NCBI GenBank assembly: GCA_016787575.1
Contig: JAEUUO010000036.1
Location: 1,266-65,265 of the forward strand
Origin: Saprospiraceae bacterium
GTDB taxonomy: Bacteria > Bacteroidota > Bacteroidia > Chitinophagales > Saprospiraceae
Direction: 5' to 3'
Length of the DNA: 64,000 bases
This document shows, piece after piece, positions 1 through 20,062 of this stretch (position 1 is the stretch's first letter; every line of letters begins with the position of its first letter). The position numbers and the translations under genes are program-made. The notes below the pieces were generated by a model. The model saw only the letters and a list, made by a program, of their open reading frames with translations, had not been told where the DNA came from and ran no database searches.

Positions 1-2
1 TT

Positions 3-281
3 GAGTGGCTCAATAAAATTGTAATAAAAATTGCATCCGAAGTTCACAAAAATAAAATTGAGGACTTTGAGAAACGTATTTTAGTTATTGAACAAGAACA
101 AAAAGTTGTTTTGAAAACACTCAAAGACATTGAAGCAAAACTTGACAAACTTGACGACAGGATTTACGATAATAATTTAAAAACCGCTAGTGCCTTAGGG
201 TTTGTTCAATCACTAAAGGCAACAGCTATTGATAATCCAAAATTTTTAAGTCAAGGTGACATCAACAAAGAACTGCCTTAG
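3..281 (+). CDS. hypothetical coiled-coil protein, 5' end outside the window (first cassette ORF)
   Basis: Frame 3 is open from the window edge to TAG at 279-281 (hand translation ...EQEQKVVLKTLKDIEAKLDKLDDRIY...). An attC-like site follows. Confidence 0.4.
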   Translation, partial: EWLNKIVIKIASEVHKNKIEDFEKRILVIEQEQKVVLKTLKDIEAKLDKLDDRIYDNNLKTASALGFVQSLKATAIDNPKFLSQGDINKELP

Positions 282-315
282 ACAAATTAGACAATGACAG
301 ACAACAAAAAACTAC

Positions 316-451
316 CGTTAACAGGCTATACACTCTACCCCGCCAGCAGCTTTATGGTTTACTTTCAATTTTTTTCGATAAGTTAAAATTATTTTTTTAC
401 TTTTGGATACCAGACTTTGGCGGTGCAGCGTGTATAGCCAATCCGTTGTAT
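316..451 (+). repeat. integron attC site (long AT-rich-centre family)
   Basis: CGTTAAC-aggctatacac ... gtgtatagcc-aatcc-GTTGTAT imperfect inverted repeat. The centre resembles the sites at 8929, 15068, 15824 and 16907. Confidence 0.65.
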
Positions 452-786
452 GAAATCCTGCCGCACGCAAACGCTCAGTACAGGAGCATCAATGGATAGA
501 TAATTTTAGAAGTCACAGCTTTTGGGTATGGTGAAGAGGACCTTAAGGACTTTGTTTAGCTGCAGTGATATCAAGCTCGCTTGAAAGATCAATGAAGCTA
601 AACAAAGTTCGGAAGTATTTAGGACAATGTCAAATAATTAGTCGATAATAGCCGTATATAAACGTTTAATTGTGACTGCTAAAAGGTATTGATGCGCCTG
701 CCGGAATTCAATACTACGCAAATCGAAGATTAACGTAATATTGAATAACCTTACTGAGGTTTCCGTAAAGTCAGCATCAGGACTTC

Positions 787-881
787 ACACAACTGCAGCT
801 TGAAACCATACCGGAAAGATATTTTCGGTAAAATTTAATATCTTTATTTCCGGAACGGTTTCAAGCTGCTTAACGTTATCG
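787..881 (+). repeat. integron attC site (short)
   Basis: ACACAAC-tgcagcttgaaaccataccggaaa ... tttccggaacggtttcaagctgc-ttaac-GTTATCG. The opening 7-mer matches 6/7 the reverse complement of GTTGTAT at 445-451. Confidence 0.7.
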
Positions 882-1049
882 CAGACTCATGGTGACTAAG
901 CATGACGGACTTGCGGAATGACTTCTCCCTCGTAGCAAAGCGTAGCATTATTGGCGGACATCACTCGTTTGCAGTTGCGCTGCTTCTTAAAAAATAAATT
1001 TAAGATTAGAAAGTTATTATTTCTTTTGAGTTTGGATGCCATGAGCCCA

Positions 1050-1144
1050 CGATAACATGGTGCACATCGCAATACCGCTATTCATGTTCTCATTTCTTTT
1101 TATATTTACGGAGCGGCACTGCGTCTGCACCAAGACCGTTGGTG
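1050..1144 (+). repeat. integron attC site (short)
   Basis: CGATAAC-atggtgcacatcgc...agcggcactgcgtctgcacc-GTTGGTG. CGATAAC is the exact reverse complement of GTTATCG at 875-881. Confidence 0.7.
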
Positions 1145-1172
1145 GCAAGCTTAACAGACACATCCCATAAAA

Positions 1173-2441: not shown

Positions 2442-3965
2442 ATGACAATAGAGCAATTTATAAATAATTTAGGATTTGAAATAAATCCATTTCAATATTC
2501 CAATGCGGATAAAGAAGTTGAGTATTTGGATTCGTATTTTATCAAACCTGATTATTTTGAAGATGTTTGGGGTAATCCGTATAATCCTGTATCTAACATT
2601 GTTTATGCCCCAAGAGGCGGTGGAAAAACTGCTCAAAGAATAATGATTGAAAAACGGGCTAAAGAATCAAAAGACATTCTCGCAATAACTTATACAAATC
2701 ATGACCTTTCAGAATTCAAAAAAATCGAGGACATCAACTTACATTATCATCTAACTTACTTAAATAGACTTCTATTAGTTGCATTTTTCAACAGAATAAA
2801 TGACACTTCATTTGACTTCAATTTCACTTTTAATTTTTCAGAGCGACAATATATTTACAAACTAGCACGCATTTATTTGTTTGATACTCCAGCATCTTTC
2901 CCAAATCAGGCAATTCAATCTCTGAAAACATTAGAGGATTATGCAGTTGATTTATGGAAAGGATTTAAGGAGCCAATAACAAATGTTATAAAACAGATTT
3001 CAAAAAGTAAAGGGCTCGAAGTTGACCTTTCCAAAATTGAAATTGATAAAAAACTAGAGTTAAGCCATAAAAACAACACTTTCAATATAATTCAACTACT
3101 AAAAAAATCAGGGTATAATTCTATTTATATACTTGTGGACAAAGTTGATGAACAAAACTTAACTGGAAATAATCCATCAGCAAGCTTCTCACTAATATCA
3201 GATCTTATCAAAGACCTTGAGTTATTAGAAACTCCCAATCTTAGCTTTAAATTTTTCTTATGGGATGCATTAAAGCCATTTGCAGTTGAAGCTGCTCGTC
3301 CCGACAGAGTATTCTCTTATGACTTAAGGTGGACTTGGATTCAAATCATTGAGATGTTATCAAAGAGGTCAGAAGCATACAGTAGAGGTAAAATCAAAAA
3401 TTTTGAATCTTTGTTTGAAAATAGAAAATCTCTTGGTAGAATTGTTCTGTTTTCAGAGTTGTCACCACGTGATTGTGTTAGAATTTGTAACAGAATACTC
3501 TCGGAACAATTCAAAGAAAATCCTAACTCTCTTAAATTTAGTGAATCGGTTGTAGATAGATCAATCGAACAATTTTGTAGGGAGAAAGCACAAGAACTAA
3601 TAGTGAATGCAACTAACCTTAAACACTTAACTAAAACTAACAGTGTTTCATTTACGATTGAAGAGCTTGTAGCAGCTAAAGTTGCGGCAGACTCTCCTGC
3701 AATTAGAAATATTATAAATCCATGGACGACCGCAGGTTATCTAAAAAAAATTGGACTTGTTGAAAGGAAAAATGCCAAATCTGTAAATGAATATGCCTAC
3801 CAGGACATTCGACTTGCATTTATGGCGACACCTACATTAAGCCTTGACCAATTTATAAAAGAAAAAGTTAGACGTTGTAAAACTGACACTTGTAAAACAT
3901 TTTACTACCGTGATTTTGATAGGAAACCTTATGATTGCCCTGAATGCAATACTGAAAATGAATAA
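2442..3965 (+). CDS. P-loop NTPase with C-terminal zinc ribbon, function unknown; single-gene cassette
   Basis: Walker A APRGGGKT (2613-2630), Walker B-like YILVDKVDE, C-terminal CKTDTC...CPEC. Start moved to ATG 2442 because the tracked GTG start at 2391 lies inside the attC. Confidence 0.6.
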   Translation: MTIEQFINNLGFEINPFQYSNADKEVEYLDSYFIKPDYFEDVWGNPYNPVSNIVYAPRGGGKTAQRIMIEKRAKESKDILAITYTNHDLSEFKKIEDINLHYHLTYLNRLLLVAFFNRINDTSFDFNFTFNFSERQYIYKLARIYLFDTPASFPNQAIQSLKTLEDYAVDLWKGFKEPITNVIKQISKSKGLEVDLSKIEIDKKLELSHKNNTFNIIQLLKKSGYNSIYILVDKVDEQNLTGNNPSASFSLISDLIKDLELLETPNLSFKFFLWDALKPFAVEAARPDRVFSYDLRWTWIQIIEMLSKRSEAYSRGKIKNFESLFENRKSLGRIVLFSELSPRDCVRICNRILSEQFKENPNSLKFSESVVDRSIEQFCREKAQELIVNATNLKHLTKTNSVSFTIEELVAAKVAADSPAIRNIINPWTTAGYLKKIGLVERKNAKSVNEYAYQDIRLAFMATPTLSLDQFIKEKVRRCKTDTCKTFYYRDFDRKPYDCPECNTENE

Positions 3966-3971
3966 TACTAC

Positions 3972-4103
3972 CGCTAACAGCCGTTTTGCAAAAGCGGGGG
4001 TTTCGTGCTTCTATGAAAGTGAAGTGTTAAATTCAAGTTTTGTGCATTTAATGAAGTTTAGTGCTAAAAATCCCCGCCTTCGCAAAGCGGCAAACCGTTA
4101 GGT
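3972..4103 (+). repeat. integron attC site (132-bp GC-rich-arm family)
   Basis: CGCTAAC-agccgttttgcaaaagcggggg ... aatccccgccttcgcaaagcggcaaacc-GTTAGGT. CGCTAAC is the exact reverse complement of GTTAGCG at 2415-2421. Confidence 0.85.
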
Positions 4104-4119
4104 GCAATTTTAAGATATT

Positions 4120-6003
4120 TTGAAAAGTAAAATACCAATATCAATAAGTCACTCAAATCTCCTTGAAGAATGGGACTATAGTTTAAACGAAAGACATCCT
4201 AATGACTTTACTAAAGGATCCAATTTTAAAGCGTTTTGGAAATGTAAAAAAAATCATTCATGGCAAGCTGCTATTTATTCAAGAACAAATGGACATGGCT
4301 GTCCATTTTGTAGATCCAGCACTTCACTGAATGAAATGACTATTTTTTCTGAATTAAGTTATGTTTTTCAAAATTCAATTCATAGGTATATAAAGGGAAA
4401 AAATGAAATTGACATTTTTTTACCGGATGTAGGTATCGGTGTTGAATATGATGGATTGAGGTGGCATATCGAGAATGACCAAAAAGACAGAAATAAAAAT
4501 CTATTCTTTCAAAGAAAAGGTATAAAAATTATCAGAATTAGACAGAAAGGGTTGCCCAAAATAACCGATGACGACATTATAGTTGAAAAGAAAATTGATA
4601 CTAAAGAAGTTATAAATGATTTACTAAAAATAATCTTGAAAACTGGTCAAGCGAAAGCTTATCAATCAAAAATTCTAGAATACATCAAACTTGATGGTGT
4701 AGCGAATGATTCAAAATATCAAGAATTATTAGCTTATCACCCATTTCCTTTCAAAGGAAGAAGTTTGGAAGATAAATTTCCAGCATTATCAGCAGAATGG
4801 GATACTAGTAAAAATAAAAATCTAACACCTAATCATTTCTATCCAAAATCAGCCACTAATGTCTGGTGGAAATGTTCAATGGGGCATGAATGGCTGGCAA
4901 GAATTTCACACCGAGTAAGTGGTAGTGGTTGCCCAATTTGTTCAGGTCGTGTTGCTGGATCAGAAAATAATCTCTCAGTTATTAATTTGGTATTAGCGAA
5001 GGAATGGCATTATCAAAAAAACAAACTGCTGCCTTATGATTACTTACCCAACTCAGGTAAAAAAGTCTGGTGGAAATGTACAAAAGGACATGAATGGCAG
5101 GCGACTATAGCTAGTCGTAACTCCAATGGCGCAGGCTGCCCTTTCTGTTCTGGCAATGATATAGAAGAATCTGATAGTATCTTTTACAATAAGGTAATAA
5201 TGTCAATTTGGAACTTTGAAAAAAACAATTCAATAAATCCAAAGAAACTGAGTAAAAATTCGAATAAAAAAGTTTGGTGGAAGTGTAAAAATAATCACGA
5301 GTGGGAATCAATAATTGCAAATATTTCTAAAGGAAGTGGTTGTCCATTCTGCAGTGGACATAAACCAACATATGAAACTTCATTTGGAAATAATCATCCT
5401 GATTTACTGAAGGAATGGGATTACTCAAAAAATGACAATAGTCCTTTCGATATAAGTTGCCAATCAAAGAAAAAAGTTTGGTGGAAATGTAATGATCAAC
5501 ACCAATGGCAAACTACAGTACAGAATAGAACTAAAGGCTCAAGATGTCCTTATTGTACCAATAAAATTGTACTAATAGCTAAATCTCTTTATACATTAGA
5601 GCCGGAATTAATGAAAGAATGGGATTTTAGTAAAAATCATAAAGTAGACCCAAAAACAATTAGCCTTGGTTCTGGACTTAAAGCCTGGTGGATTTGTAAA
5701 AATGGTCATTCATGGGAAGCATCAATTTATCATCGCACAAAAAACAAATCTGGATGTCCTTTTTGTTCTAACAAGAAAATTTCAATAGAAAATTCTATTG
5801 TGACTAAATATCCACAATTAATGAAGGAATGGGACTTTAAGTTAAATTCAGAGATTAAACCTGAGATGTATTCGCATGGTTCTACAAAAAAAGTTTGGTG
5901 GAAATGCGCTAAAGGACATAGTTGGCTTGCATCAATTGGGAAAAGAACGAGTGGCAGAAGTTGTCCGGAGTGTTATAAATTGAAAAGGAAAAACAGCACC
6001 TAA
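4120..6003 (+). CDS. seven-repeat treble-clef zinc-ribbon protein (DUF4379-like) with embedded Vsr/DUF559-like PD-(D/E)xK endonuclease domain
   Basis: Seven repeats of about 52 aa: EW(D/N)..KN....(V/A)WWKC..GH.W...I..R..G.GCP.C. EIDIFLPDVGIGVEYDGLRWH...IKIIRIR lies between repeats 1 and 2. TTG start. Confidence 0.7.
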   Translation: MKSKIPISISHSNLLEEWDYSLNERHPNDFTKGSNFKAFWKCKKNHSWQAAIYSRTNGHGCPFCRSSTSLNEMTIFSELSYVFQNSIHRYIKGKNEIDIFLPDVGIGVEYDGLRWHIENDQKDRNKNLFFQRKGIKIIRIRQKGLPKITDDDIIVEKKIDTKEVINDLLKIILKTGQAKAYQSKILEYIKLDGVANDSKYQELLAYHPFPFKGRSLEDKFPALSAEWDTSKNKNLTPNHFYPKSATNVWWKCSMGHEWLARISHRVSGSGCPICSGRVAGSENNLSVINLVLAKEWHYQKNKLLPYDYLPNSGKKVWWKCTKGHEWQATIASRNSNGAGCPFCSGNDIEESDSIFYNKVIMSIWNFEKNNSINPKKLSKNSNKKVWWKCKNNHEWESIIANISKGSGCPFCSGHKPTYETSFGNNHPDLLKEWDYSKNDNSPFDISCQSKKKVWWKCNDQHQWQTTVQNRTKGSRCPYCTNKIVLIAKSLYTLEPELMKEWDFSKNHKVDPKTISLGSGLKAWWICKNGHSWEASIYHRTKNKSGCPFCSNKKISIENSIVTKYPQLMKEWDFKLNSEIKPEMYSHGSTKKVWWKCAKGHSWLASIGKRTSGRSCPECYKLKRKNST

Positions 6004-6129
6004 CAACGGTTTTGTGTTATGGGGGCTGTCGTGCTTGGCAGAAACATTTGTGCAAGGCTCAACATTTGTACTTCGTATGAACAGTAGTGCTAAAAATCCC
6101 CCACAACGCAAAGCCGCAAACCGTTATGC
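5998..6129 (+). repeat. integron attC site (132-bp family)
   Basis: ACCTAAC...GTTATGC. ACCTAAC is the exact reverse complement of GTTAGGT at 4097-4103. The arms closely resemble the site at 3972-4103. The ORF stop TAA lies inside the opening core. Confidence 0.85.
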
Positions 6130-6166: not shown

Positions 6167-8308
6167 ATGAAAATCAGGCAAATCATAGATAAAATTGACG
6201 AGAACCAACTTTTTGTACCTGCATTCCAAAGAGAATATGTTTGGAAAAGGAATGATGCGAAAAATCTAATTTCTTCACTAATCAAAGATTATCCCACAGG
6301 AACAATGCTAACTTGGGAAACGAACAAACCACCAGAACTAAAAGGCAAATTCAAATATGATGAAAATAAAGGTGCGGTAAAAATAATTCTTGACGGACAA
6401 CAGCGCATTACGACACTATATATGCTAATGCAAGGTGACATTCCTCCATATTATAATGAAAATGAAATAGAAAACGATATTAGAAATTTATACGTAAATG
6501 TTGAATCGCTTGAACTGGAGTATTATAAAGTTAAAATGATGGAAAACAATCCACTTTGGGTGAATATTACAGATATTTTTAAAGGCAAAGTGAGAGAAAG
6601 AGATATAACAGATGAGTTAGAAAGAAGAAACAATGGGGAAAGATTACCAAGAGAAAGAGAAACACTTATTTCAAATAATATCAGATCAATTGAACGAATT
6701 GAAGACAGAGACTTTCTGGAACAGATAATTCCTGTAAAAGCAACAATTAAAGAAGCCATTGACATTTTTTATATTGTCAATGCAAGTGGGGTAAACTTGA
6801 CAGATGCAGAATTGGCCTTAGCTCAAATATCTGGCTATTGGCCAAATGCAAGAGATTTATTCAAGAAAAAATTACAGGAACTAGAAAAACAAGGCTGGGT
6901 TTTTAAACTGGATTTTATTGTGTATGCATTGTTGGCAGTTACACATAAAATGGGTTCCAAAATGGAAAAACTTCACACTGCAGATAACAAGGATAAGTTA
7001 ATGGCGGCATGGAAAAAACTTGACGATACTGTTCTCGACTACGTTTGCAATCTATTACAAAGTCAAGCATTTATTGACCATACTGATGAAATTAACTCAA
7101 TTTATGCACTTATTCCTTTAATTTCATACACTTTCAATAAACCTGACAGTAAACTGAATGAAGAAGAAATAAAGAAATCAATTAAGTGGTTTTACTATTC
7201 TCAAATACGATTTAGATATATAAGTCAGTTGCCGCAAAAATTAGATAAAGACATAGGTATAATTAATGACAATCTCAATCCCTTCGACACACTGCTTGCA
7301 CTAATCGACGAAGAACGGCCCTTAGAAATCAAGTCATCAGAATTTATTGGAAGAGACATACGCCACCCTTTATTTTCATTAATGAAATGGTATTTTAAAA
7401 GCAAAGGTGCTGTTTGTTTGGGGACCGGCCTGTCGCTTCGTAAAAATATGGGTAAAAAGTATAGTCTGGAAAGAGACCATATTTTCGCATACTCCGTTCT
7501 TAGGGATTCCGGTATTTACGACATGGAAAATCAATTCCATTACGCTATAGCACAAGAGATTACTAACCGTGCAATTCTAACATCAACTGAAAATCGGGAA
7601 AAGTCAGCTATGTTTGCTGATGTTTATTTATCTAATGTGAGAAAATTATTTCCAAATGCTTTGAAGTTACAAAGCATTCCAGAAGATGAAAATCTCTGGA
7701 AGGTAGAGAATTACGAAAGGTTCCTTGAAGCAAGAAGAGAAACGCTTGCTAAGGAATTGAATTATTTTCTACAAACTATTTCCATTGGGCAAGTAACAGT
7801 TTCAACATCTGTCGATTTGCTTGACATGATAGCATCTGGAGAGCATGGTTTTTTAGAATTCAAGTCAACTATGCGATGGAATTGGAAAGAGAACCGTCTT
7901 GACAAAAAGATGGAAGAGATCATTTTAAAAACTATTTCAGCATTTAGTAATGCCGAAGGTGGAAAACTGCTTATAGGAGTTACAGACGAAGGAGAAATAC
8001 TTGGACTCGAATCTGATTACAATACATTCAAGGAAGCTAATAAAGACCATTTTGAATTACACCTAAGAAATATAATCAACAATGCCTTTGGCAAAGAGTT
8101 CGGTGCAATTTATTTGAATGTCCGTTTTCCAATAGTGAATGATATAGAAATATGTGAAATAGATATCAAAGCGGCAAAGACACCTCTCTATTGTGAAATT
8201 GCTGACAAAAATGGAGCATCTCAAAAGAAATTTTATATCCGTAGTGGTAATTCATCGCAAGAGCTGGACATTGAAGAAACAGCGTCATACATTAAGAAAA
8301 GATTTTGA
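6167..8308 (+). CDS. GmrSD-like DUF262 (ParB-like) + His-Me/DUF1524-like nuclease fused to a C-terminal AlbA_2/Schlafen-like domain
   Basis: FQREYVW and DGQQR (6392-6406) are DUF262 motifs. ERDHIF...NRAILTSTENREKS is HNH-like. The C-terminal GEHGFLEFKS...FSNAEGGKLLIGVTDEGEILG resembles the AlbA_2/Schlafen fold. Confidence 0.7.
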   Translation: MKIRQIIDKIDENQLFVPAFQREYVWKRNDAKNLISSLIKDYPTGTMLTWETNKPPELKGKFKYDENKGAVKIILDGQQRITTLYMLMQGDIPPYYNENEIENDIRNLYVNVESLELEYYKVKMMENNPLWVNITDIFKGKVRERDITDELERRNNGERLPRERETLISNNIRSIERIEDRDFLEQIIPVKATIKEAIDIFYIVNASGVNLTDAELALAQISGYWPNARDLFKKKLQELEKQGWVFKLDFIVYALLAVTHKMGSKMEKLHTADNKDKLMAAWKKLDDTVLDYVCNLLQSQAFIDHTDEINSIYALIPLISYTFNKPDSKLNEEEIKKSIKWFYYSQIRFRYISQLPQKLDKDIGIINDNLNPFDTLLALIDEERPLEIKSSEFIGRDIRHPLFSLMKWYFKSKGAVCLGTGLSLRKNMGKKYSLERDHIFAYSVLRDSGIYDMENQFHYAIAQEITNRAILTSTENREKSAMFADVYLSNVRKLFPNALKLQSIPEDENLWKVENYERFLEARRETLAKELNYFLQTISIGQVTVSTSVDLLDMIASGEHGFLEFKSTMRWNWKENRLDKKMEEIILKTISAFSNAEGGKLLIGVTDEGEILGLESDYNTFKEANKDHFELHLRNIINNAFGKEFGAIYLNVRFPIVNDIEICEIDIKAAKTPLYCEIADKNGASQKKFYIRSGNSSQELDIEETASYIKKRF

Positions 8309-8345: not shown

Positions 8346-8477
8346 GCATAACAGCACCTACCCAAAAGACGGGGTTTTGTGCTCCAAAGACAGATTTGTG
8401 GTAAAAGGAATATTTGTACTATTAATCAACATTTGTGGTGAATCCCCCGCCCTTCGGGTAGCCGCAAAACGCTAGTG
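8346..8477 (+). repeat. integron attC site (132-bp family)
   Basis: GCATAAC...aatcccccgcccttcgggtagccgcaaaac-GCTAGTG. GCATAAC is the exact reverse complement of GTTATGC at 6123-6129. The closing core has C in place of the second T. Confidence 0.75.
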
Positions 8478-8487: not shown

Positions 8488-8934
8488 ATGATAAAAGCTA
8501 TGCTTAATAGAATTGTGATCTCGATAATAATAATAATTATGTCATTAAGTTGCTCAAGGAATGATTATAGTGGAATTTATACACGACCGAGACATGTTAA
8601 ACTTTTAGGAGAAGGAATAACAATATTTAAAGACAGTTCGTATTCATACTTTTTTTCTGGCGGTGATTATCCAAGTATTATAGATAAAAAGGGGAATTAT
8701 AAAATGTTTAATAATAAACTAATCATATTTCATTCAGATAGCATAAGAGATTCAGAAATATCTCTTTACAGAGTGGATAGTTATTCCATAACTGATACTT
8801 ATTACATTCTAAAAATTGATCAAGAATGTATTTTGTATAACAATACAAAATGTTTTATGAAATTGAGGACGAACGGAAAGCTTGATGAATCGAAATATCA
8901 AAAAATCTGTAGAGCTGCAAAGCACGGTCACTAA
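8488..8934 (+). CDS. small hypothetical lipoprotein (cassette)
   Basis: Signal peptide with lipobox-like MSLSC. No recognisable domain. Confidence 0.5.
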   Translation: MIKAMLNRIVISIIIIIMSLSCSRNDYSGIYTRPRHVKLLGEGITIFKDSSYSYFFSGGDYPSIIDKKGNYKMFNNKLIIFHSDSIRDSEISLYRVDSYSITDTYYILKIDQECILYNNTKCFMKLRTNGKLDESKYQKICRAAKHGH

Positions 8935-9060
8935 CATGGTATACACTTAGTTCCACAAGAAAATTTAATTTTTCACTCTTGGCTTTCAATGTAAAATCTA
9001 TCTCCTTATCTTTGGCTTTCTCCCGTTAGCGGGACTGCGTGTATACCAAAACCGTTATGT
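8929..9060 (+). repeat. integron attC site (long AT-rich-centre family)
   Basis: CACTAAC-atggtatacac ... gggactgcgtgtatacc-aaaacc-GTTATGT. The opening core matches 6/7 the reverse complement of GCTAGTG at 8471-8477. Confidence 0.8.
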
Positions 9061-9079
9061 AGCATAAAAACATATAATA

Positions 9080-9727
9080 ATGAAAAGAAACACAATCAAT
9101 ATTCTGATTTCAGTATTATCTATATTTTCAGCTCAACGATTGCTTGCTCAAGAAAATAAATTCTTATTAAGTATTGAATACTCACCGAATTGTTCAAAAA
9201 TTACTGATGAAGTGGTTAATGAAAAATACAAATTAAGTCACAATGCATTAATAAGAATTGAATATAATACAAAAGGAAAGATTAAGCCATCATTAGGTTT
9301 AGGATATCTCAATACCGGTGAGTTAGAAAAATCTGAAATTGGAGGTCAGCAGGGAATTGAAGAAGTAAAATTCATTCATAATTATAATTATCTTTTCATT
9401 CCAATTGGGGTGATAATCAAATTTGGGAAGTTTTATTTCTTACCTGAAATTGGACTTGGAGTTAATATATCAAATAAAACAAGACAAATAACGAAATTTA
9501 CAAACGGTGAAACAGAAAAGGAAACGCGAGATGAAACCCTAATTTCTGGCGAATTTAATAAACTTTCAATCCCATTGTCATTAAGTGTCGCGAGGCAAAT
9601 TTCAATTGGTGGTAAATCATTTTCAACAGGATGCAAAGGATACTATGGAATTAACAAAGTTGTAAGAGATGTGCCTCGAAACAATCATTATTTTGGACTA
9701 GGGGTACTATTAGCAATGAATTTATAA
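9080..9727 (+). CDS. outer-membrane beta-barrel (porin-family-like) protein (cassette)
   Basis: Signal peptide ...FSAQRLLAQE, alternating beta-strand pattern, aromatic C-terminus. Confidence 0.5.
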   Translation: MKRNTINILISVLSIFSAQRLLAQENKFLLSIEYSPNCSKITDEVVNEKYKLSHNALIRIEYNTKGKIKPSLGLGYLNTGELEKSEIGGQQGIEEVKFIHNYNYLFIPIGVIIKFGKFYFLPEIGLGVNISNKTRQITKFTNGETEKETRDETLISGEFNKLSIPLSLSVARQISIGGKSFSTGCKGYYGINKVVRDVPRNNHYFGLGVLLAMNL

Positions 9728-10259: not shown

Positions 10260-10277
10260 TAAAGCGGCGCATAACAG

Positions 10278-11992: not shown

Positions 11993-12058
11993 TGACGTTT
12001 ATGGTAAGGCGAGAGTTAGTATTCTTTTGAATTTATTCAAACAAAATTTATATCAATA

Positions 12059-15000
12059 ATGAAAGAAGTTAGACAAGACGACATAGAGATTTATTTAGCA
12101 AATGCAGAAAAGCCAATAGCATATTCAAATTATTCTTATCCCATTAATAAGCTAGATGATAGAGTATATGAAGTTTTGACATATTCAATTTTCAAAAAAA
12201 GAATTGCCACAAATGATGCAGGAATTAGTGAGAAGCATTCTAATGTGATTCTGATGCAAGGTATTGGTGAAAAAGGGATGGATTGTATACTTACCTATGA
12301 GAATAGAATAAATGGAGTTATTCAATGTAAAAAGTATTCTAAAAATTTGACTGACACTCAAATATTAACGGAACTTATAAAGTTTGCAATTCACTTTTCT
12401 ATTGATAGTACAAGATTTACTCAAAGCAACAAATTAAAATATTTCTTTGCAACTTCAACAGGTTATACTGCAAAAGCAATTCAACTTATTGAGCTGATTA
12501 AAGACAAATCATTCCAGAGTAAATATGATTATATAAAAATAGTTACATCTATTATTGGAAAATATAAAGAGTTCAAGAATCTGAAATTAATAAGGTTGCA
12601 AGCTGAAATACCAAATATTTTGTCTAATTTTGAATATGAACTAATAAGACCTGATGATTATAACCTTTGGATAAATACCTATCCTGAAATTATTAATACA
12701 TTTTTTGAAGTAAAAAAAGTTACGGATAATTCTCTGATAGAAGAGAAAGGGAATGAGATTTTGAATAAAATTGAAACTCTGTTTTCAGTAAAAGAATCAG
12801 AAGTTATTGATTCTTTTATCAAGAAATACAAAGCTGTTGCTGTTGAGAAGCTAAATCTTGTAAATTTTATTGGTTTTGATTTACACAGATATAGGCAAAA
12901 ACCAGCAGAAATAACATTGACAGAATTATTTGTTATGCCTTCTTTTATTCAAAGAATAAGCGATAAAAATAAAAAAGTTCTAAGTATTGTTGATAAAGAC
13001 TTAAAAGTTGCAAATGTTTTTAAGTCGGATAAAAATATAATCCTTCTTGGAGATCCAGGTGCTGGTAAATCATTACTTGTTAAATTTATTATAGTACAAA
13101 TTTTAAATGGAGCTGAAGATAAAATTGGTCTAAAGCAATTTGGCCATGCCATTCCATTTAGAATAGAATTAAGGAAATACAATGAGGTTCGAGAAAGTAA
13201 AAGTGTTATTGAGTATTTGTCCGATCTACTTGATAAAGAGTATCAAACTGCTATTGGTATTGATATGTTAAGTAAATTAATTCATAATTATGAGTCAATT
13301 GTCTTTTTTGATGGATTAGATGAGATATTTAATGCAACCCATAAAAATAAAATGAAAGAATGCATTGAATTGTTTAGTATTAACTTTCCGAAGTCAAAAA
13401 GTGTAGTAACCTCTAGATTTATTGGTTATCATGATATTAATTTTAATCCTAAGAAGTTTGATGAATTTGCCATTCAGCGTTTTAATCAAAGTCAAATAGA
13501 AGAATTAATAGCAAAATTTTATGCGACTCAAATTTCAAATATTGATAAAAGGCGCATATCAATAGTAAATTGCATTTCGCAAATCGAAAAAGAAGTTGAC
13601 AACGATTTAAAGAGCAACCCACTTATAATGACTCTGATTCTAATTCTTACGAGTAACAATATTATTATTCCGGATTCTAAGCTAGAAATTTATGAAGCAT
13701 GTACCAAGACATTAGTAGATAGTATTGATACTAGAGAGAAAGAATTGAAGATAGAAATGCCAGTAAAAAATAAGCGACTCACATTTGCTCACTTAGCATA
13801 TTGGCAATATGAATCACTTAGTAAGAATTCAAAAATTTCCTATGATAGAGCTGTTAAAGCAATATCAGATTTTCTAATTGATAAAAAAGAAGTTTTAGAT
13901 ATTACAGAAGCAGAGGATAAGGCCAAAAAATTCCTGGATTATGCTGAAAAGCGATCAATATACTTTGAAGATAACTTCACTCATAAAACATTTTTAGAAT
14001 ATTATACCGCAGACTACCTGTATATAAATTTTTTTACGAAAGCAAATGATCAAGCAAGAAAGAAGGTAATTTCTATTATCACTAATTATCTTCCAAAGGC
14101 ATTTTGGTATATCGTTTTTGAGTTGCTATTAACTAGAATAGATAAAGAACAGGCAGACTCTGAATTGTTGGATGAAATATTTTCAAAGCAAATTGAATCC
14201 AATTCTCTTAATGTTTTTTATTTTTTAATTAGTAATTTAACTAAATTTATAAATATTAGTAATGAAATAAAATCGAAAATAATTAAGAAAACTATATTGC
14301 TATGTATCAAAGGAGAAAAGGTATCAGAACTTAGACATGGTTATCATTTTGAAGAAAATAGTTTATTAGCGAAGATAAATTACTTACAAAAGGATGATAG
14401 TTTATTCGATATATTCCAAGCAGCTATCTATGAATTTGAAGATGATGGCCTAGATGATAGAGATTTAATTGAATTTTACATATTTTATTATGAGGTAGTC
14501 TCCTTAAATTTTAAAATGAAGTATGAAAATTCTTTAAAAATTAAAAACAAAAGGAAGCTTAAGGAGCTTAGTTATAAAGACCTTCACTTGTTCTGTCAAT
14601 CTATCGTTCCAAGAAAAAACAAAGATGAAGTGATTTCCATTAATGTGCTTTTGGATCAGATAGAACATTTTGGCACTAAAAGTTTATTTAAAAATTTAAA
14701 ATTTCGTCATCGAGATAATGTATTTAGAATTGATACATTTGATATTTATCTTATGAGTGTAATTGAAAATTTAGATTATGAGGCATTTCAGGAAGATTAT
14801 TTTAAACTTTTAAAAGCTGGTTTAAGACATGACCAGATATTGGATCATGTAAAATCTTCAAAATTATTTTTCTTTCATAGAGGAGAAGGTTTTGAGAAAC
14901 TTCTTAATTTCTTTTTAAAATCTAACAATAAGGAACTAGATGACATTATACTTGGGCTTGTGAGAAATATTGGTGAAATGAGAATTACTTACGAAAAATT

Positions 15001-15061
15001 TAGAGAGACCAATTCTAATTCAAAGCTTAGAATCATAGACAAAATATTTAAGAGGAAATAG
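12059..15061 (+). CDS. NACHT-family STAND NTPase with N-terminal Mrr-like PD-(D/E)xK nuclease domain and large helical C-terminal region (Avs/bNACHT-like)
   Basis: YEVLTYSIF...GEKGMDCIL...GVIQCKKY (D...QxK nuclease motif). Walker A LLGDPGAGKS (13049-13072). Walker B IVFFDGLDE. About 550 aa of C-terminal alpha-helical sequence. Confidence 0.75.
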   Translation: MKEVRQDDIEIYLANAEKPIAYSNYSYPINKLDDRVYEVLTYSIFKKRIATNDAGISEKHSNVILMQGIGEKGMDCILTYENRINGVIQCKKYSKNLTDTQILTELIKFAIHFSIDSTRFTQSNKLKYFFATSTGYTAKAIQLIELIKDKSFQSKYDYIKIVTSIIGKYKEFKNLKLIRLQAEIPNILSNFEYELIRPDDYNLWINTYPEIINTFFEVKKVTDNSLIEEKGNEILNKIETLFSVKESEVIDSFIKKYKAVAVEKLNLVNFIGFDLHRYRQKPAEITLTELFVMPSFIQRISDKNKKVLSIVDKDLKVANVFKSDKNIILLGDPGAGKSLLVKFIIVQILNGAEDKIGLKQFGHAIPFRIELRKYNEVRESKSVIEYLSDLLDKEYQTAIGIDMLSKLIHNYESIVFFDGLDEIFNATHKNKMKECIELFSINFPKSKSVVTSRFIGYHDINFNPKKFDEFAIQRFNQSQIEELIAKFYATQISNIDKRRISIVNCISQIEKEVDNDLKSNPLIMTLILILTSNNIIIPDSKLEIYEACTKTLVDSIDTREKELKIEMPVKNKRLTFAHLAYWQYESLSKNSKISYDRAVKAISDFLIDKKEVLDITEAEDKAKKFLDYAEKRSIYFEDNFTHKTFLEYYTADYLYINFFTKANDQARKKVISIITNYLPKAFWYIVFELLLTRIDKEQADSELLDEIFSKQIESNSLNVFYFLISNLTKFINISNEIKSKIIKKTILLCIKGEKVSELRHGYHFEENSLLAKINYLQKDDSLFDIFQAAIYEFEDDGLDDRDLIEFYIFYYEVVSLNFKMKYENSLKIKNKRKLKELSYKDLHLFCQSIVPRKNKDEVISINVLLDQIEHFGTKSLFKNLKFRHRDNVFRIDTFDIYLMSVIENLDYEAFQEDYFKLLKAGLRHDQILDHVKSSKLFFFHRGEGFEKLLNFFLKSNNKELDDIILGLVRNIGEMRITYEKFRETNSNSKLRIIDKIFKRK

Positions 15062-15067
15062 CCCTGA

Positions 15068-15198
15068 TATCAACTGAGTACTTACGATCATGGCGCAAAT
15101 AAGCTTTAATTTTCACTTTTAGCTTTTAATGAAATAATATTTCTTACTTTTGGATTTGGTGCTAGTGGCGGCCCGTCGCAATTGCCTGGCCGTTATAG
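15068..15198 (+). repeat. integron attC site (long AT-rich-centre family); opening core uncertain
   Basis: ...TATCAAC-tgag-TACTTAC-gatcatggcgc ... ggcggcccgtcgcaattgcctggcc-GTTATAG. The centre is typical (aattttcacttttagc...atttcttacttttgg). Confidence 0.6.
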
Positions 15199-15223: not shown

Positions 15224-15829
15224 TTGAGAAATGTAATTTTATTTATACTAATTATTTTGAATTGTAACTGTAGGATAGAATCTAATTATGAAGAAGGACT
15301 TAAAAATTGTTTAAATAATTTTGCTTGAGCAAAGAAACTCGGTTCAAATGCAAGCATGTCGATTGGGCCAGATTGTTTGATTGGTGCTAGAGTTCCTGAT
15401 TTTAAGGTAGAACTTATTGATGGAAGTAAATATTCAAACGAAAACCTAAAGGGTAAAGTTAGTGTTATTAATTTTTGGTTTATTGACTGTCCGCCTTGTG
15501 TTGCAGAAATTAATGGCTTAAATAGTTTGGTTGAATTATTTGGAAAAGATAAAATAAATTATGTTGCATTTGGAAGAGATCCAAAAAGTGATATAGAATC
15601 ATTTTTAAAAAATCATGTTTGGAATTATAACCACATTTCTGGTGAAAATAATATTATTGATACTATTTTTAAACTGTATTGGGGTTATCCAGCAACTTTT
15701 ATTTTGAATAAACAAACAGAAATAATTTATACTGCTTCTGGTGGCAAATCAGATTCAACTGCAAGCGAAGAATTACTAAATAAACTTATTCCGATCCTAA
15801 AGAATGCAGAGGAAAATGACGACCTATAA
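15224..15829 (+). pseudogene. TlpA/thioredoxin-like lipoprotein reading frame interrupted by an in-frame TGA (15326-15328)
   Basis: TTG at 15224 opens LRNVILFILIILNCNC... (signal plus lipobox) in the same frame as the 15356 ORF. A single TGA separates them. Confidence 0.45.
15356..15829 (+). CDS. thioredoxin-fold thiol:disulfide oxidoreductase (TlpA/ResA-like), as tracked from the internal ATG
   Basis: VPDFKVELIDG...LKGKVSVINFWFIDCPPCVAE contains a CxxC motif. Confidence 0.7.
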   Translation: MSIGPDCLIGARVPDFKVELIDGSKYSNENLKGKVSVINFWFIDCPPCVAEINGLNSLVELFGKDKINYVAFGRDPKSDIESFLKNHVWNYNHISGENNIIDTIFKLYWGYPATFILNKQTEIIYTASGGKSDSTASEELLNKLIPILKNAEENDDL

Positions 15830-15953
15830 CTTCGTACTTGCGATAATGCCGTCAAGCACCAGATATTTTCACTTTTGGCATGAATTGAAAAACTATTTTC
15901 TATATTTGGTATAATTGGAATGGTTGCACATCGCAAGTATTTCATCGTTGACT
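15824..15953 (+). repeat. integron attC site
   Basis: CTATAAC-ttcgtacttgcgat...atcgcaagtatttcatc-GTTGACT. CTATAAC is the exact reverse complement of GTTATAG at 15192-15198. The ORF stop lies inside the core. Confidence 0.8.
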
Positions 15954-15978: not shown

Positions 15979-16896
15979 ATGGGAAGAACAAGTAAACGAC
16001 TTTTAATTGGAGCATCAAGTCCTGTTGGATATTTCTATGAATATGATAGAGTGAAAATTCATGGAAAACCAGCCCCTATTTTGGAAACACCATTAAGCTA
16101 CTGTTTGCTTTATGACGAAATCTGGTTTCTTAGTAGAAAGGTATGTCCTCACAATATGGAGAATTTAAGTTTTGTCCATTTTGTTGACGAAGACTTAATG
16201 CCCAAAGGGCTTCCTTTAGATTTCGCAAAAGACCAAAATCTCAATCCTTTTGGAGAATTCCCTTGGGAATCATGGAAAGATGTGATTAAAAGGACAATTG
16301 GTCTAAGATGGAGTTATGACAACCATTCAAGTAATATGCAATTTGGGGAACTGCGAATGACACCAACACCTGGAAATTATTTGAATTTGCTAGTAGATAG
16401 ATATGTTGCAGCAATGCATGAAATGGATTTAGTAGAAAACTCTGCAAATTTGTTTTGGAGTCAAGAAGTTGACAATGTACAATTGAAATTAAGTATAAGT
16501 GAAAAACTATTAACATCATCAATCGTATCTTTGCAAACTATTAATGGGCCATGGCATCCTGAAATACATAATTTAAGAGAAGATAGTTTATTAAAAAAGT
16601 ATCGTCAGAAAATACAAGACGTCTCAGTTAATGAAATTAATGACGTTGATAAAAGAATTGGTGAATTGTCAAAAGAGTTTGAAAAAATATCACTAAAAAT
16701 AGTTTCTGAGCAATTTGAAACTACTGGACTTTTTACAGGAACAGCAATGTTTTTAGTGGGATTAATACCTACAATTGGAAATATAATTGGTGGTGGGCAA
16801 GTTCTAAATGATATCTATTCAAACATAAAATTAAGAGAACAAAAAGGCTGGGTTGGATTCTTGGGTAGAGCTAAAAGTTCATTAACAGAATTGTGA
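15979..16896 (+). CDS. hypothetical protein with C-terminal glycine-zipper TM helix (cassette)
   Basis: No recognisable domain. C-terminal GLFTGTAMFLVGLIPTIGNIIGGG. Confidence 0.5.
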   Translation: MGRTSKRLLIGASSPVGYFYEYDRVKIHGKPAPILETPLSYCLLYDEIWFLSRKVCPHNMENLSFVHFVDEDLMPKGLPLDFAKDQNLNPFGEFPWESWKDVIKRTIGLRWSYDNHSSNMQFGELRMTPTPGNYLNLLVDRYVAAMHEMDLVENSANLFWSQEVDNVQLKLSISEKLLTSSIVSLQTINGPWHPEIHNLREDSLLKKYRQKIQDVSVNEINDVDKRIGELSKEFEKISLKIVSEQFETTGLFTGTAMFLVGLIPTIGNIIGGGQVLNDIYSNIKLREQKGWVGFLGRAKSSLTEL

Positions 16897-16906: not shown

Positions 16907-17036
16907 AGTCAACAATGTACTTACAGACATGCCATCTAAAAATTTAGTTTTCACTTTTGACTTAGATTGAAAATACAATTTCTTACTTTTGCCTTCTGGA
17001 CAAGTAGCGGCGCGGCGCAAGTACATAGCGTTATGA
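16907..17036 (+). repeat. integron attC site
   Basis: AGTCAAC-aatgtacttac...gcgcaagtacatagc-GTTATGA. AGTCAAC is the exact reverse complement of GTTGACT at 15947-15953. Confidence 0.8.
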
Positions 17037-17716
17037 CGACAAACCAAACTTCAATATCAACTTATCACGAATATATTCTTGAAGCAATTTATGCTTTGCG
17101 ATACGGACTAGCTTATTATGAAATTGCAAAGCAAATTCCAGCTGACACAGGTTCGGACCAATCAATGCTAATTGCAGAAATAAATAGCCGTTATTCATTT
17201 CTAATGATTTCAAACTCGCTTGAATCAGCAGCAAACGCCTTACTTCTTAGTCTAAACCTAGACAAAGAATATTACGCAGAATTAGAACGGACAAGCACTT
17301 TAGTTAAGTTTAAAATATTCTGTGACTTTTTAGGCAAGCGCCTTGACCAAGGTGATATTAAGTTTGGTAGAATTAAGGATATAATCAACTGTAGAAATGA
17401 ATTTGTTCATCCTAAACCAAGAAAAGCAACTTACCGAATAGACAATTTTAATTCAGAAATTAAGTTTGAGGTCAAATCGACAAAAAACCGAAACTATCCG
17501 GCCTATTTTAGTGAAATAAAGCCTACCCATGTATTGACAGCTTTGGAAGACACTTTGATTTTTATTTCTTGGATTTGTTTTGACATTTGTAAGTTAGAGA
17601 TTCAAGATGGAGCCTTTAAGCTTGGTTTTGGTTCGTACGGTAGCACCGGAGACATAGACAATATTGGTGAAGATTACGAAATTAAATTTGATAAACGGAC
17701 TTTTGGACAGCAATGA
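17033..17716 (+). CDS. hypothetical alpha-helical protein with HEPN-type Rx4H motif (candidate RNase; cassette)
   Basis: CRNEFVHPK (R121-H126, nt 17393-17410) in a predicted helical context. Start moved to the ATG that overlaps the attC closing core (gttATGa). Confidence 0.5.
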   Translation: MTTNQTSISTYHEYILEAIYALRYGLAYYEIAKQIPADTGSDQSMLIAEINSRYSFLMISNSLESAANALLLSLNLDKEYYAELERTSTLVKFKIFCDFLGKRLDQGDIKFGRIKDIINCRNEFVHPKPRKATYRIDNFNSEIKFEVKSTKNRNYPAYFSEIKPTHVLTALEDTLIFISWICFDICKLEIQDGAFKLGFGSYGSTGDIDNIGEDYEIKFDKRTFGQQ

Positions 17717-17864
17717 GTAATATTGGCATTAAGACACGTTTGGCGTCATGTGGATTGACATGGTTACATTCAAGTTCAGTTTTCCAAGTTGGCTTTTGTG
17801 CTGGTTTGTCAGCTTTGTGCTCCGAATATCCGCCGAATGCCAAACGCCAAAACGTTCGTTATCG
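17689..17864 (+). repeat. integron attC site (two possible registers for the opening core: 17689 or 17727)
   Basis: TGATAAAC-ggacttttgg...ttggcatt (or GCATTAAG-acacgtttggcg) pairs with aatgccaaacgccaaaacgttc-GTTATCG at 17836-17864. Confidence 0.55.
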
Positions 17865-17879
17865 GTAATAATTTGTAAA

Positions 17880-18401
17880 ATGGAATTTATAACTAATGAC
17901 AATCCATGGATAAATGGATATCCTATACATGAATCATATTCATTATTAGACTTAAAGGCATTTCATTTAGTTTCAATTTTAAATGCCTCTATGGTTTCAA
18001 ATAATATTGAGGACTTGAATACTTTTCTTATAAAAGAATATGAAATGTCAGAGGTGTCAAGAATTTTATTAGAAATTGCTGTTCAAATTAGAAGTCAAAT
18101 TGATCAAGATTCTCCAATATTTGAAGGAAGAAAATATAATCCCAATTCAATAACAGGAAAGTTAACGATTAACCCTCAGAGTAATTTATGCAAGACAAAA
18201 GATTTATCTTTTAGAGAAGCATGTAATAAAATTATTCATGCTAAACATATTAACTTTGACTTATCAAACGCAATCTCAATTAAGGAATATGATTCTATCA
18301 ACCCAATTATTTATTTGTATGGTGATTTAAATGGAAATGAATGGAAATCTCAATTAGATATATTGAAATTTATTTCAATATTAATTTGTATTAAAAACTA
18401 A
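17880..18401 (+). CDS. hypothetical protein (first gene of an apparent two-gene cassette)
   Basis: Start moved to ATG 17880, downstream of the attC. Contains FREACNKIIHAKH. No confident domain. Confidence 0.45.
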   Translation: MEFITNDNPWINGYPIHESYSLLDLKAFHLVSILNASMVSNNIEDLNTFLIKEYEMSEVSRILLEIAVQIRSQIDQDSPIFEGRKYNPNSITGKLTINPQSNLCKTKDLSFREACNKIIHAKHINFDLSNAISIKEYDSINPIIYLYGDLNGNEWKSQLDILKFISILICIKN

Positions 18402-18506
18402 GTGCACATAGCATCGCATTCACACTATAGCGCAAATATCATGAAGACATTTATCTTGGCGGGCTTGGAAAACATATTTTACATTTAGCTTAAAACCAAG
18501 TGAGGT

Positions 18507-19052
18507 ATGGCGTCAATAGCTGACCGTTTTTTTCATTTAATTTTGAAACCATTTATTTATTCTTTTTTTATTTTTGGATTTATGAACATCTGTTCTGCAG
18601 CTGATTCAATTGATAATGTATTCCTGAAAGATAGTGTTATAAAGGGTGTTTTATCATTTCCAAACTTCAGTTGGGGTAGTTATTATGGCGGGGTAGATAG
18701 TATAATAATCAGGGCAGATAATGAACTCGATAGATTGGAGCAGACCGATTCAGCTTTGTTGACTCCAAATGATGTTGAAACACTTAACATTTATGGAAGG
18801 CTACGCAAAACAAAGCTACTATACAGACCCTTTTTCCATTTGCAAACAGACAGTTCTGAATATATAGTCTATATTGATTCTCTAGCATACGAAAATATCA
18901 ATATTTATAATAAAAAGGAACTCGAGAAAGAAAATTCTATCGTAGAAATTGAATTGATTGGCGAATTTATTAATTTGGGGTCCTTCGATGTAATTAAATG
19001 CAACAAGTTATTGCGCGTTAGGAAAATGATAAAACAAAGCAAGGGTCGATAA
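18507..19052 (+). CDS. hypothetical exported or membrane-anchored protein (second gene of the cassette)
   Basis: Hydrophobic N-terminus ...FIYSFFIFGFMNICSA. Confidence 0.45.
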   Translation: MASIADRFFHLILKPFIYSFFIFGFMNICSAADSIDNVFLKDSVIKGVLSFPNFSWGSYYGGVDSIIIRADNELDRLEQTDSALLTPNDVETLNIYGRLRKTKLLYRPFFHLQTDSSEYIVYIDSLAYENINIYNKKELEKENSIVEIELIGEFINLGSFDVIKCNKLLRVRKMIKQSKGR

Positions 19053-19170
19053 GAAATTTTTCACTCAGTCCTACATGAAAGTTTAATATTTTATTTTGCT
19101 TTTAAACATAATATATTTAACGTTGAATTCCACCTTTAGCAGGACTACATGTATACCATAGTTGTTGTCG
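19047..19170 (+). repeat. integron attC site
   Basis: CGATAAG ... aggactacatgtatacc-ata-GTTGTCG. The opening core matches 6/7 the reverse complement of GTTATCG at 17858-17864. Confidence 0.6.
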
Positions 19171-19237
19171 ATTTCAAATTGATTTCTTAAATAATGAATT
19201 CATATTGACAGGCTAAAATATAGTAAATTGAATTAAA

Positions 19238-19558
19238 ATGAAGTTTGACGTAGAAGATCTTGGATGGCTCTTATTAACTATATGGATAATTCAAACGATT
19301 TTTTATTTAGGGTATTTAGTATTTCACGACACATTCAATTTTGAATTTAGAAAAATCTTGTATATTTCAGTGGCCACCAGCCTGATTCTTTCATTAATAA
19401 TACAATTTGGGGGATTTTATAAAAGCATTCAAGCTGCTACTTGTGGGACTGAAAAATTTAATCCCATTGGAATCATTGGAGTGTATGGAAGTATTGGAAG
19501 TTTGATAATTTATATTATATTTTCAATCTTAAAAAAAGTTATCGATAAACTAACATAA
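19238..19558 (+). CDS. small multi-pass membrane protein (last cassette)
   Basis: Three hydrophobic segments. No recognisable domain. Confidence 0.45.
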   Translation: MKFDVEDLGWLLLTIWIIQTIFYLGYLVFHDTFNFEFRKILYISVATSLILSLIIQFGGFYKSIQAATCGTEKFNPIGIIGVYGSIGSLIIYIIFSILKKVIDKLT

Positions 19559-19695
19559 AAATCCAGCCGTTTAGATTATAAACAAGTAGTCTCTCAAGAA
19601 TTTTATTATTTCACCTTAAGCTTTACTAATAATCTATTTTTTTTGGCCTTAACTTCCATTATTAACAAGACTGCGTGTATACCAAAACGACTCTA
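19543..19695 (+). repeat. terminal, degenerate attC-like site (array end)
   Basis: CGATAAAC... and the conserved right arm caagactgcgtgtataccaaaac are present, but CGACTCT follows where a GTTRRRY core is expected. Confidence 0.45.
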
Positions 19696-20062
19696 TCCTA
19701 ATTCAAATACCCATTTTTAAAACCAATTGGCTATACTCAGAAATTTCTGAATTATTTGATTGCTTGTTCCTCTTATAATATTAAAGACATTTAAGCATTT
19801 AAATTTTTTATAGCATACTGACTTCAAAAGACCTTTAGCTAAACCTTTCTTAAGCCTCCCTTCCATACTAATTTTCCCTATTTTTATGCTCCACTTTAGC
19901 CTACCACAAGGTAAAAGCTATTCCATTTAATATGTTGTTGCTTGCTTGGATATTTTTAATCCATTTAGTAACTTTATGCTGCAATCATCGATATTCTTTT
20001 ACGTTATAGACAAGCATGCCTTGCCTTAATAAAGAAGACGTGTATCAAATAAATCTGCTAGT

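Follow-up and report, generated by a model that had tools for sequence, protein, structure and literature searches.

An integron-type cassette array with variant attC sites and a promoter-like loop motif in a Saprospiraceae contig

The window analysed here, a stretch of 64,000 nucleotides from contig JAEUUO010000036.1 of a Saprospiraceae bacterium, very probably carries an integron-type gene cassette array in its first 19.7 kb. Our overall explanation, to which we assign a probability of roughly 0.8, is that we see here the distal part of an integron-type array, sedentary and chromosomal, residing in a Bacteroidota host and built with a variant of the cassette recombination site attC. The cassettes, each closed by an attC-like hairpin of the form xxxYAAC...GTTxxxx, would owe their movement to a site-specific recombination with its crossover at G|TT. 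About 17 cassettes were counted; the array recognised in the first-pass annotation of this DNA is real, and the number given there was about 16. It extends past the left edge of the window, upstream of coordinate 1, and the + strand holds all open reading frames (ORFs) of at least 100 aa between 1 and 19.7 kb. The sites form a cluster, and no integron integrase was found in the window or in related loci. The locus behaves like a sedentary chromosomal integron array or a cluster of attC sites lacking an integron integrase (CALIN).

This explanation is supported by the relation between neighbouring sites, which are numbered S0 to S16. Each site opens with a 7-nt box, R'', and closes with a second one, R'. 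The nine box pairs listed in the first-pass annotation were all verified, in their coordinates and as exact reverse complements: GTTATCG at 875 with CGATAAC at 1050, GTTGGTG at 1138 with CACCAAC at 2297, GTTAGCG at 2415 with CGCTAAC at 3972, GTTAGGT at 4097 with ACCTAAC at 5998, GTTATGC at 6123 with GCATAAC at 8346, GTTATGT at 9054 with ACATAAC at 9741, GTTATGC at 9802 with GCATAAC at 10269, GTTATAG at 15192 with CTATAAC at 15824, and GTTGACT at 15947 with AGTCAAC at 16907. Between S0 and S13, where R' of one site was compared with R'' of the next, 9 of 13 junctions match at 7/7 positions, two at 6/7 and one at 5/7. Three additional 6/7 junctions had been claimed; two are those just mentioned, and the third may be GTTATCG at 17858 against CGATAAG at 19046, a further 6/7 match. 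The two boxes of one and the same site were exact complements in 0 of 14 sites, with a mean of 3.8 of 7 matching positions. When the boxes were re-paired at random a mean of 0.84 exact junctions was obtained, and none of 100,000 permutations reached nine. The six bases after each GTT complement the opening box of the next site and not that of their own, which we attribute to recombination at G|TT.

A public contig of 211 kb (L001), which contains the same SIR2-like cassette, is 99.9% identical to the window from 874 on. The identity starts at 874/875, the GTT of S1; upstream of this point the two sequences are unrelated, and L001 carries another cassette and a site of another family. Homologues of the sites were found by blastn at 91 places inside 1-19.7 kb, 90 of them on one strand, and at none in the remaining 44 kb; repeats scattered over the genome, which the first-pass annotation had named as the observation that would speak for an ordinary repeat family, were accordingly not seen in the window. 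The stop codons at the sites lie in or beside R'' (e.g. 6001-6003 and 15827-15829).

Related arrays were present in a metagenome-assembled genome (MAG) labelled Bacteroidota, JAKOVW01 (loci L008, L041 and L063), and on three metagenome contigs (L128-L130). The MAG was found by a genome scan with a 14-mer taken from a site, a word too short for the purpose, and most of its matches were due to chance; a metagenome scan gave the other three arrays, and a viral scan for the site found nothing. Site identity between these arrays and the window is 70-89%, the intervening genes are unrelated, and the junction rule also holds in the relatives' arrays (Bacteroidota MAG). The Bacteroidota background assumed in the first-pass annotation holds: such a host is supported by T9SS (type IX secretion system) sorting domains in cassettes of the relatives, by a SusC-like gene and by the way promoters are used (see below).

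The window sites open with xxxYAAC and close with GTTxxxx, apart from the decayed sites and S6, whose R' at 8471-8477 reads GCTAGTG. They had been described as inverted repeats of 68-176 bp that follow every ORF and open with xxxTAAC; the repeats were recovered, at 68-149 nt, while several of them open with xxxCAAC. Hairpin sites after ORFs measure about 59-149 nt, and intact ones 59-140 nt, in keeping with the approx. 57-141 nt of canonical attC; the split site S9 spans 10269-12003. We distinguished two site families, the main family (a) and a family (b) with GGGG/CCCC arms, consisting of S4, S5 and S6. In the 27 family (a) sites that were aligned AAC and GTT are invariant (27/27), and the fourth position is T/A in 22. 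The core is formed by 4 bp of AAC/GTT, a 1-nt/5-nt asymmetric internal loop, a 10-bp helix, conserved mismatches and a long loop; one unpaired nucleotide follows AAC and five, with the consensus AAACC, precede GTT, and the 10-bp helix is perfect and without a bulge. This geometry was found in S0-S7 and in nearly all sites of the related arrays. As a control for the detector, 826 kb of sequence gave 22 matches over all nine geometries tested. Most of the sites had escaped both an ungapped search for inverted repeats and a simple scan by anchored alignment, because the arms are offset by 4 nt; this geometry-aware detector took their place.

The proposed fold was borne out by covariation. In the 27 family (a) sites, which come from at least five sources, 87% of the cells were paired compared with 27-41% in slid controls, compensatory changes were found at 15 of 20 stem pairs, and none of 500 shuffles reached the observed values. 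Together with the strain break at GTT, the confinement of the sites and the junction rule in the relatives, this upholds the recombination at G|TT proposed in the first-pass annotation. Most sites fold as long imperfect hairpins, the decayed distal sites being the weakest; the last three or four sites, between 17.7 and 19.7 kb, are decayed. The first-pass annotation had pointed to bottom-strand folding with extrahelical bases, and the first part of this stood: of the 13 sites with a recognisable hairpin, 10 fold more stably on the bottom strand. Conserved single-base bulges were absent from the alignment, and conserved mismatches were found instead (columns 21/121 and 24/118 of alignment A4).

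For comparison with known attC sites we built a covariance model, R1, from 13 bona fide class 1 plasmid attCs; it is a small model and not that of IntegronFinder. The class 1 alignment comprises a 7-bp R helix, a 5/6-nt spacer, 3 bp, a one-base bulge and at least 6 bp, as in the published architecture (PMC5027507). Both trained and untrained class 1 attCs scored 25-67 bits. The sites of the window are not scored by R1, and the check by an attC covariance model suggested in the first-pass annotation, in the form of R1, thus went against it; R1 fails on these sites because of their 1/5-nt spacer and the lack of extrahelical bases. We concluded that the sites act like attC and yet are not canonical attC, that they represent a lineage-specific variant, and that the failure of R1 is no proof of unrelatedness.

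The junction rule is symmetric and would be the same for both polarities. A mirrored polarity, in which the top strand is recombined at R'' and the unit consists of an attC with its downstream ORF, was considered since the extra bases are on the unusual arm. It was provisionally rejected on three grounds: the break with L001 falls at R', a lone GTT stands at the array starts, and the bottom strand folds better. Recombination would then involve the bottom strand, as in the canonical polarity.

An IntI1 query that was 100% identical to the annotated IntI1 was used with tblastn and phmmer on all stop-to-stop ORFs. By this approach no tyrosine recombinase was found in the window, in agreement with the first-pass annotation, or in L001, L041, L063 and L128-L130. 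The starts of arrays are visible in L001 (5699-5728), L008 (6366-6387) and L041 (approx. 7450, minus strand), each followed by G|TTA. At these starts a lone GTT junction is complementary to R'' of the first site, which fits the canonical polarity. A conserved stretch before GTT reads TAGCrTGTATAArCnAG in L001 and L008 and, in a looser form, CTAGCGAGTAT...CAACC in L041. It resembles the 3' arm of a family (a) site, and the flanking genes are unrelated between the starts, as are their chromosomal positions; the start junction may be an attI-like secondary target that seeds arrays. No IntI-type integrase was adjacent to any of the three starts, which belong to two genomes. The placement of intI and attI just upstream, as in the first-pass annotation, was therefore not borne out in the relatives; the corresponding upstream sequence of the array itself lies outside the window. 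Since the starts in the relatives are without an adjacent IntI-type integrase, the recombinase would not be encoded in cis and would act in trans, have been lost or be something other than an IntI.

The only tyrosine recombinase that these searches brought up is a 440-aa enzyme of Bacteroidota type in L008, 620 bp from the array start in divergent orientation. Its domains are Arm-DNA-bind_5, SAM_5 and Phage_integrase, and it shares the region 3898-5757 with an Xis-like gene and the 3' fragment of a tRNA. On domain architecture and context we rejected it as an integron integrase; the simplest reading is that it comes from an integrative element next to the array.

The long loop of the family (a) sites contains a second conserved element. 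The invariant blocks of the 27-site alignment are AAC, GTT and the six fixed positions of a TAnnTTTG box, to which seven isolated columns are added; as the 27 sites were selected for having the box, even if they amount to the full set of intact long-loop sites, the definition of the family is partly circular, which weakens a promoter reading. Of 44 sites, 27 have the box on the top, coding strand and none has it on the bottom strand; in 26 of these 27 the distance from the end of the box to GTT is 36-40 nt. At nn we saw CT, TC, TA, AA, GT, TT and AT, and the loop around the box has diverged. TAnnTTTG is the -7 element of housekeeping promoters of Bacteroidota such as Bacteroides and Flavobacterium, where a -33 element, TTG or TTTG, is located about 19-21 nt upstream of it. 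The host itself makes use of it: in the window, 8 of the 22 regions upstream of genes outside the array have the box on the gene strand, approx. 5-fold over background, and in seven of these 8 it is found 21-36 nt before the start codon. A structural cause, pairing of TTTGG with CCAAA in the 3' arm, was considered and rejected, as sites without CCAAA keep the box; since box and CCAAA do not covary, such a cause is unlikely.

Taken together, position, strand and host usage tip the balance slightly towards the box being a working outward promoter. Transcription would then start in the 3' arm of the site and read into the next cassette, and expression would thereby become independent of the distance from the platform promoter. 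A full-text search for TAnnTTTG together with "integron" gave nothing relevant. A review of cassette expression places known promoters in the 5' untranslated regions (UTRs) of cassettes or in elements inserted in attC and does not describe them as intrinsic to a family of sites (PMC8876359; see also PMC3001079). In family (b) (3972-4103, 5998-6129 and 8346-8477) we noted repeated TTTGTGC/TTTGTAC motifs and an AAnnTTTG-like box approx. 35 nt before GTT, the same place as that of TAnnTTTG in family (a).

Several observations weigh against our explanation or parts of it. Neither the window nor any of the related array loci yielded an integron integrase, and recombination by an IntI is thus inferred. 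R1 gave at most 9.7 bits on window sites, with E>5, the best and still non-significant score being that of S8. Spacer and extrahelical bases both differ from published attC architecture, which has a spacer of "usually five to six bases" per arm and two or three extrahelical bases opposite AAC on the bottom strand (PMC5027507); here the bottom strand has its four surplus nucleotides on the arm with AAC, the reverse of the canonical arrangement. One junction polymorphism in other samples was not a clean G|TT event. The homologue in L128 of the ORF-less cassette at 452-786 carries a different attC, so that site and cassette body are not always co-inherited. For the promoter, the exact box is limited to family (a), which means 5 of approx. 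16 sites of the window, and no -33 TTG was found at 19-21 nt, the nearest conserved TTTG being 23-30 nt upstream.

Look-ups in other samples for clean cassette swaps returned mostly identical arrays or a junction that was not clean. In eight samples (L141-L148) the 215-aa cassette found in the window at 9080-9727 follows a different gene without an intact site, to be compared with window 9040-9070. The junction reads AAAACCG|CT in these samples and AAAACCG|TTATGTAG in the window; it is non-canonical and probably represents a decayed or deleted site.

An ordinary CALIN, with standard attC sites, a standard IntI elsewhere in the genome or upstream, and a loop motif that reflects shared ancestry and has no promoter role, is the alternative that survives best, and we hold it to be possible if rather unlikely. 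What is seen of cores, junction rule and hairpins is as expected for integrons, and so are the lengths (59-149 nt) and the cassette content; CALINs are a common class, and integrons have been reported in Bacteroidota (PMC9024848, PMC8618304, PMC9668308); R1, with its 13 class 1 sites, may be too narrow, and the part of the array upstream lies beyond the window. Against this stand the spacer, which is fixed at 1/5 where 5-6 nt per arm have been published, together with the absence of bulged bases (PMC5027507), the invariance of TA..TTTG while nn and loop have diverged, a box that never occurs on the other strand, and the lack of an IntI-type integrase beside the three array starts seen in two genomes.

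Recombination by an enzyme other than IntI, for example a Bacteroidota-type tyrosine recombinase like that of L008, with AAC/GTT cores that are convergent or only distantly related, appears improbable. The lack of IntI near the starts, the divergent recombinase next to the first cassette of L008 and the departure of the site geometry from known IntI-bound sites would fit it. The L008 enzyme, however, has the architecture of integrative-element integrases and, with its Xis-like gene and tRNA fragment, looks like part of a neighbouring mobile element, the starts in L001 and L041 are without any recombinase, and integrons are recognised by just this combination of inverted RYYYAAC/GTTRRRY cores with a crossover at G|TT. 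Intergenic repeats of the repetitive extragenic palindrome (REP) or miniature inverted-repeat transposable element (MITE) type, or plain terminators, without a role in cassette mobility can be dismissed: intergenic hairpins after ORFs that fall into sequence families are what such elements look like, yet no copy lies in the 44 kb outside the array and 90 of 91 matches share one orientation, which excludes dispersed REP/MITE elements as far as the window reaches, the junction rule cannot come from repeats or terminators, the replacement in L001 falls exactly at GTT, and there is no T-run in the scanned motif.

The array can be followed site by site, all features being on the + strand. The 3' part of a cassette cut by the edge occupies 1-315, with a partial ORF at 1-281, and is followed by S0 (316-451, CGTTAAC...GTTGTAT), a family (a) site with the box TACTTTTG at 398-405. 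Two cassettes are without an ORF: the cassette body at 452-786, closed by S1 (787-881, ACACAAC...GTTATCG), and a short one at 882-1049, closed by S2 (1050-1144, CGATAAC...GTTGGTG), whose opening box pairs exactly at the junction. The SIR2-like cassette ORF at 1173-2288 was matched by SIR2 models of defence type in PADLOC (E=6e-10) and weakly by Pfam SIR2; its site, S3 (2297-2421, CACCAAC...GTTAGCG), has an 89% identical copy in L128. Next comes an ORF (2442-3965) for a DS41_1 anti-phage protein, a P-loop ATPase of the Sll1717 family (NCBIfam NF053860, 498 bits at a cut-off of 370), and S4 (3972-4103, CGCTAAC...GTTAGGT) of family (b).

An ORF with seven DUF4379 treble-clef zinc-finger repeats (4120-6003; PF14311, E=4e-137) ends with a TAA stop within R'' of S5 (5998-6129, ACCTAAC...GTTATGC), again of family (b). 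It is followed by an ORF with GmrSD_N and Schlafen AlbA_2 domains (6167-8308; Pfam), a HEC-05-like defence candidate by PADLOC (E=5e-46), and by the family (b) site S6 (8346-8477), where GCTAGTG stands for GTTAGTG, a point mutation in the invariant GTT (GTT to GCT) that leaves a 6/7 match with the next R''. From this mutation a fusion of two cassettes into one unit is expected. The neighbouring 148-aa cassette ORF (8488-8934) had no family assignment in Pfam searches, and its site S7 (8929-9060, CACTAAC...GTTATGT) is the prototype of family (a), with the box TATCTTTG at 9007-9014. The 215-aa cassette ORF (9080-9727) occurs in 15 other contigs, and its upstream neighbour differs in the 8 places shown. 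It is closed by S8 (9741-9808, ACATAAC...GTTATGC), a short site of 68 nt with a 4/6 spacer and the most canonical-looking one.

After a 121-aa cassette ORF (9894-10259), S9 (10269-12003, GCATAAC...GTTTATG) is split by an insertion sequence (IS) in its loop, which carries an IS1182-family transposase gene at 10354-11922 (NF033551, 333 bits at a cut-off of 270; Pfam DUF772 and DDE_Tnp_1). The arms of S9 (10275-10296 and 11973-11994) are intact, and the insertion was also found in other samples (L141, L122). A NACHT NTPase of 1000 aa with an LmuA-like N-terminus (12059-15061; Pfam NACHT, PADLOC LmuA), a defence candidate of STAND type, is closed by S10 (15068-15198, TATCAAC...GTTATAG), which has the box TACTTTTG at 15145-15152. 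The following ORF for a thiol-disulfide oxidoreductase of AhpC/TSA type (15356-15829) has a box of its own, TAATTTTG at 15316, and S11 (15824-15953, CTATAAC...GTTGACT) contains TATATTTG at 15901-15908. A 305-aa cassette ORF (15979-16896) received no family assignment in Pfam and PADLOC searches; behind it lies S12 (16907-17036, AGTCAAC...GTTATGA) with TACTTTTG at 16984-16991.

The distal end begins with a 227-aa cassette ORF (17033-17716, as called in public assemblies) and the decayed S13 (17716-17864), which keeps R' as GTTATCG at 17858, has a rearranged 5' arm and no recognisable R''. The region 17865-19045 comprises one or two cassettes, with ORFs of 173-217 aa and 181 aa and at most a decayed site between them. 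S15 (19046-19171, CGATAAG...GTTGTTG/GTTGTCG) is a decayed family (a) site. The last cassette ORF codes for 106 aa (19238-19558) and overlaps the last site, S16 (19548-19693), where R'' (AACTAAC) and a family (a) 3' arm are kept and R' is lost (AAAACGACTCTA). From approx. 19873 on the chromosomal flank is conserved with contig L123.

The cassette content, which includes several small proteins without a family, is typical for chromosomal integrons. The SIR2-like, DS41_1, GmrSD/Schlafen and NACHT cassettes are anti-phage candidates by their domain matches.

The ORF-less cassette at 452-786 was compared with its L128 homologue (5401-5741), which is approx. 72% identical. A multi-stem fold with long-range closing pairs and 11 compensatory pairs was obtained, with conserved G-U pairs on the + strand; only these two sequences were compared. 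An Rfam search over the whole window gave no family at the gathering threshold, and at E<=1 on 1-1200 only hairpin-like miRNA false positives. The region is a candidate structured non-coding RNA carried as a cassette.

Just downstream of the array, at 20063-26179, are genes for an AurF-like di-iron oxygenase, a KAS III, an AMP-binding enzyme, an epimerase/dehydratase and a short-chain dehydrogenase. This conserved cluster, which has no relation to the array, is possibly a small operon for biosynthesis.

The superintegron of Vibrio with its VCR sites and CALINs resemble the array in their co-oriented single-ORF cassettes, imperfect inverted repeats with RYYYAAC/GTTRRRY-type cores, crossover at G|TT, homogeneous lineage-specific site families, a content rich in defence genes, toxins and genes of no known role, and the lack of an integrase in cis. 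They differ in that here the spacer is 1/5 nt instead of 5-6 per arm, bulges are missing, the sites go unscored by the class 1 model, the loop holds a conserved box of the host's promoter type, and arrays start with a junction like an attC 3' half without an adjacent intI. The class 1 attCs (aadA1, aadB, aacA4, dfrA5 etc.) share AAC...GTT cores, a hairpin, a variable loop and the complementarity of adjacent sites; with their 5/6-nt spacer, 3 bp, 1-nt bulge and at least 6 bp they reach 25-67 bits where the sites here give at most 9.7.

Transcription of distal cassettes independently of the integron promoter Pc is known from cassette-borne promoters (cmlA, qac, toxin-antitoxin) and from promoters of group IIC-attC introns (PMC8876359, PMC3001079). 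Those promoters are located in the 5' UTR or in an inserted element, whereas here the box is intrinsic to the attC loop and family-wide; if it is a promoter, transcription of a cassette would be driven from the site of the one before it. The interrupted S9, with its arms kept, recalls the IS1111-attC family and the group IIC-attC introns, mobile elements that likewise interrupt attC; the element here is of the IS1182 family.

Integrons are described by an integrase linked to attI and Pc, by promoterless cassettes whose expression falls with the distance from Pc, and by a common attC fold, the one built into detection tools. The array of this Saprospiraceae bacterium keeps the G|TT junction rule but departs from this description in a geometry that escapes the class 1 model, in an apparent promoter box of its main site family, and, in relatives, in starts without an adjacent IntI-type integrase. 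As a tentative extension, which we consider possible at best, it may belong to a distinct Bacteroidota lineage of integron-like systems, with a re-spaced site that is free of extrahelical bases and doubles as an outward promoter, so that any cassette would be transcribed at any position, with arrays seeded at dispersed attI-like half-sites, and with an unlinked recombinase, possibly other than a canonical IntI. If true, such an integron would lack both a platform and a "silent memory" and be largely invisible to current finders.

Surveys have found integrons to be rare in Bacteroidota (PMC9024848, PMC8618304, PMC9668308). If our reading is true, biased detection would help to explain this apparent rarity. 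It would also reveal how captured genes can be expressed in a phylum whose promoters are unusual, and the question whether large arrays are a silent reserve or an expressed gene set would become testable. The array is in addition a compact source of candidate anti-phage genes from Bacteroidota.

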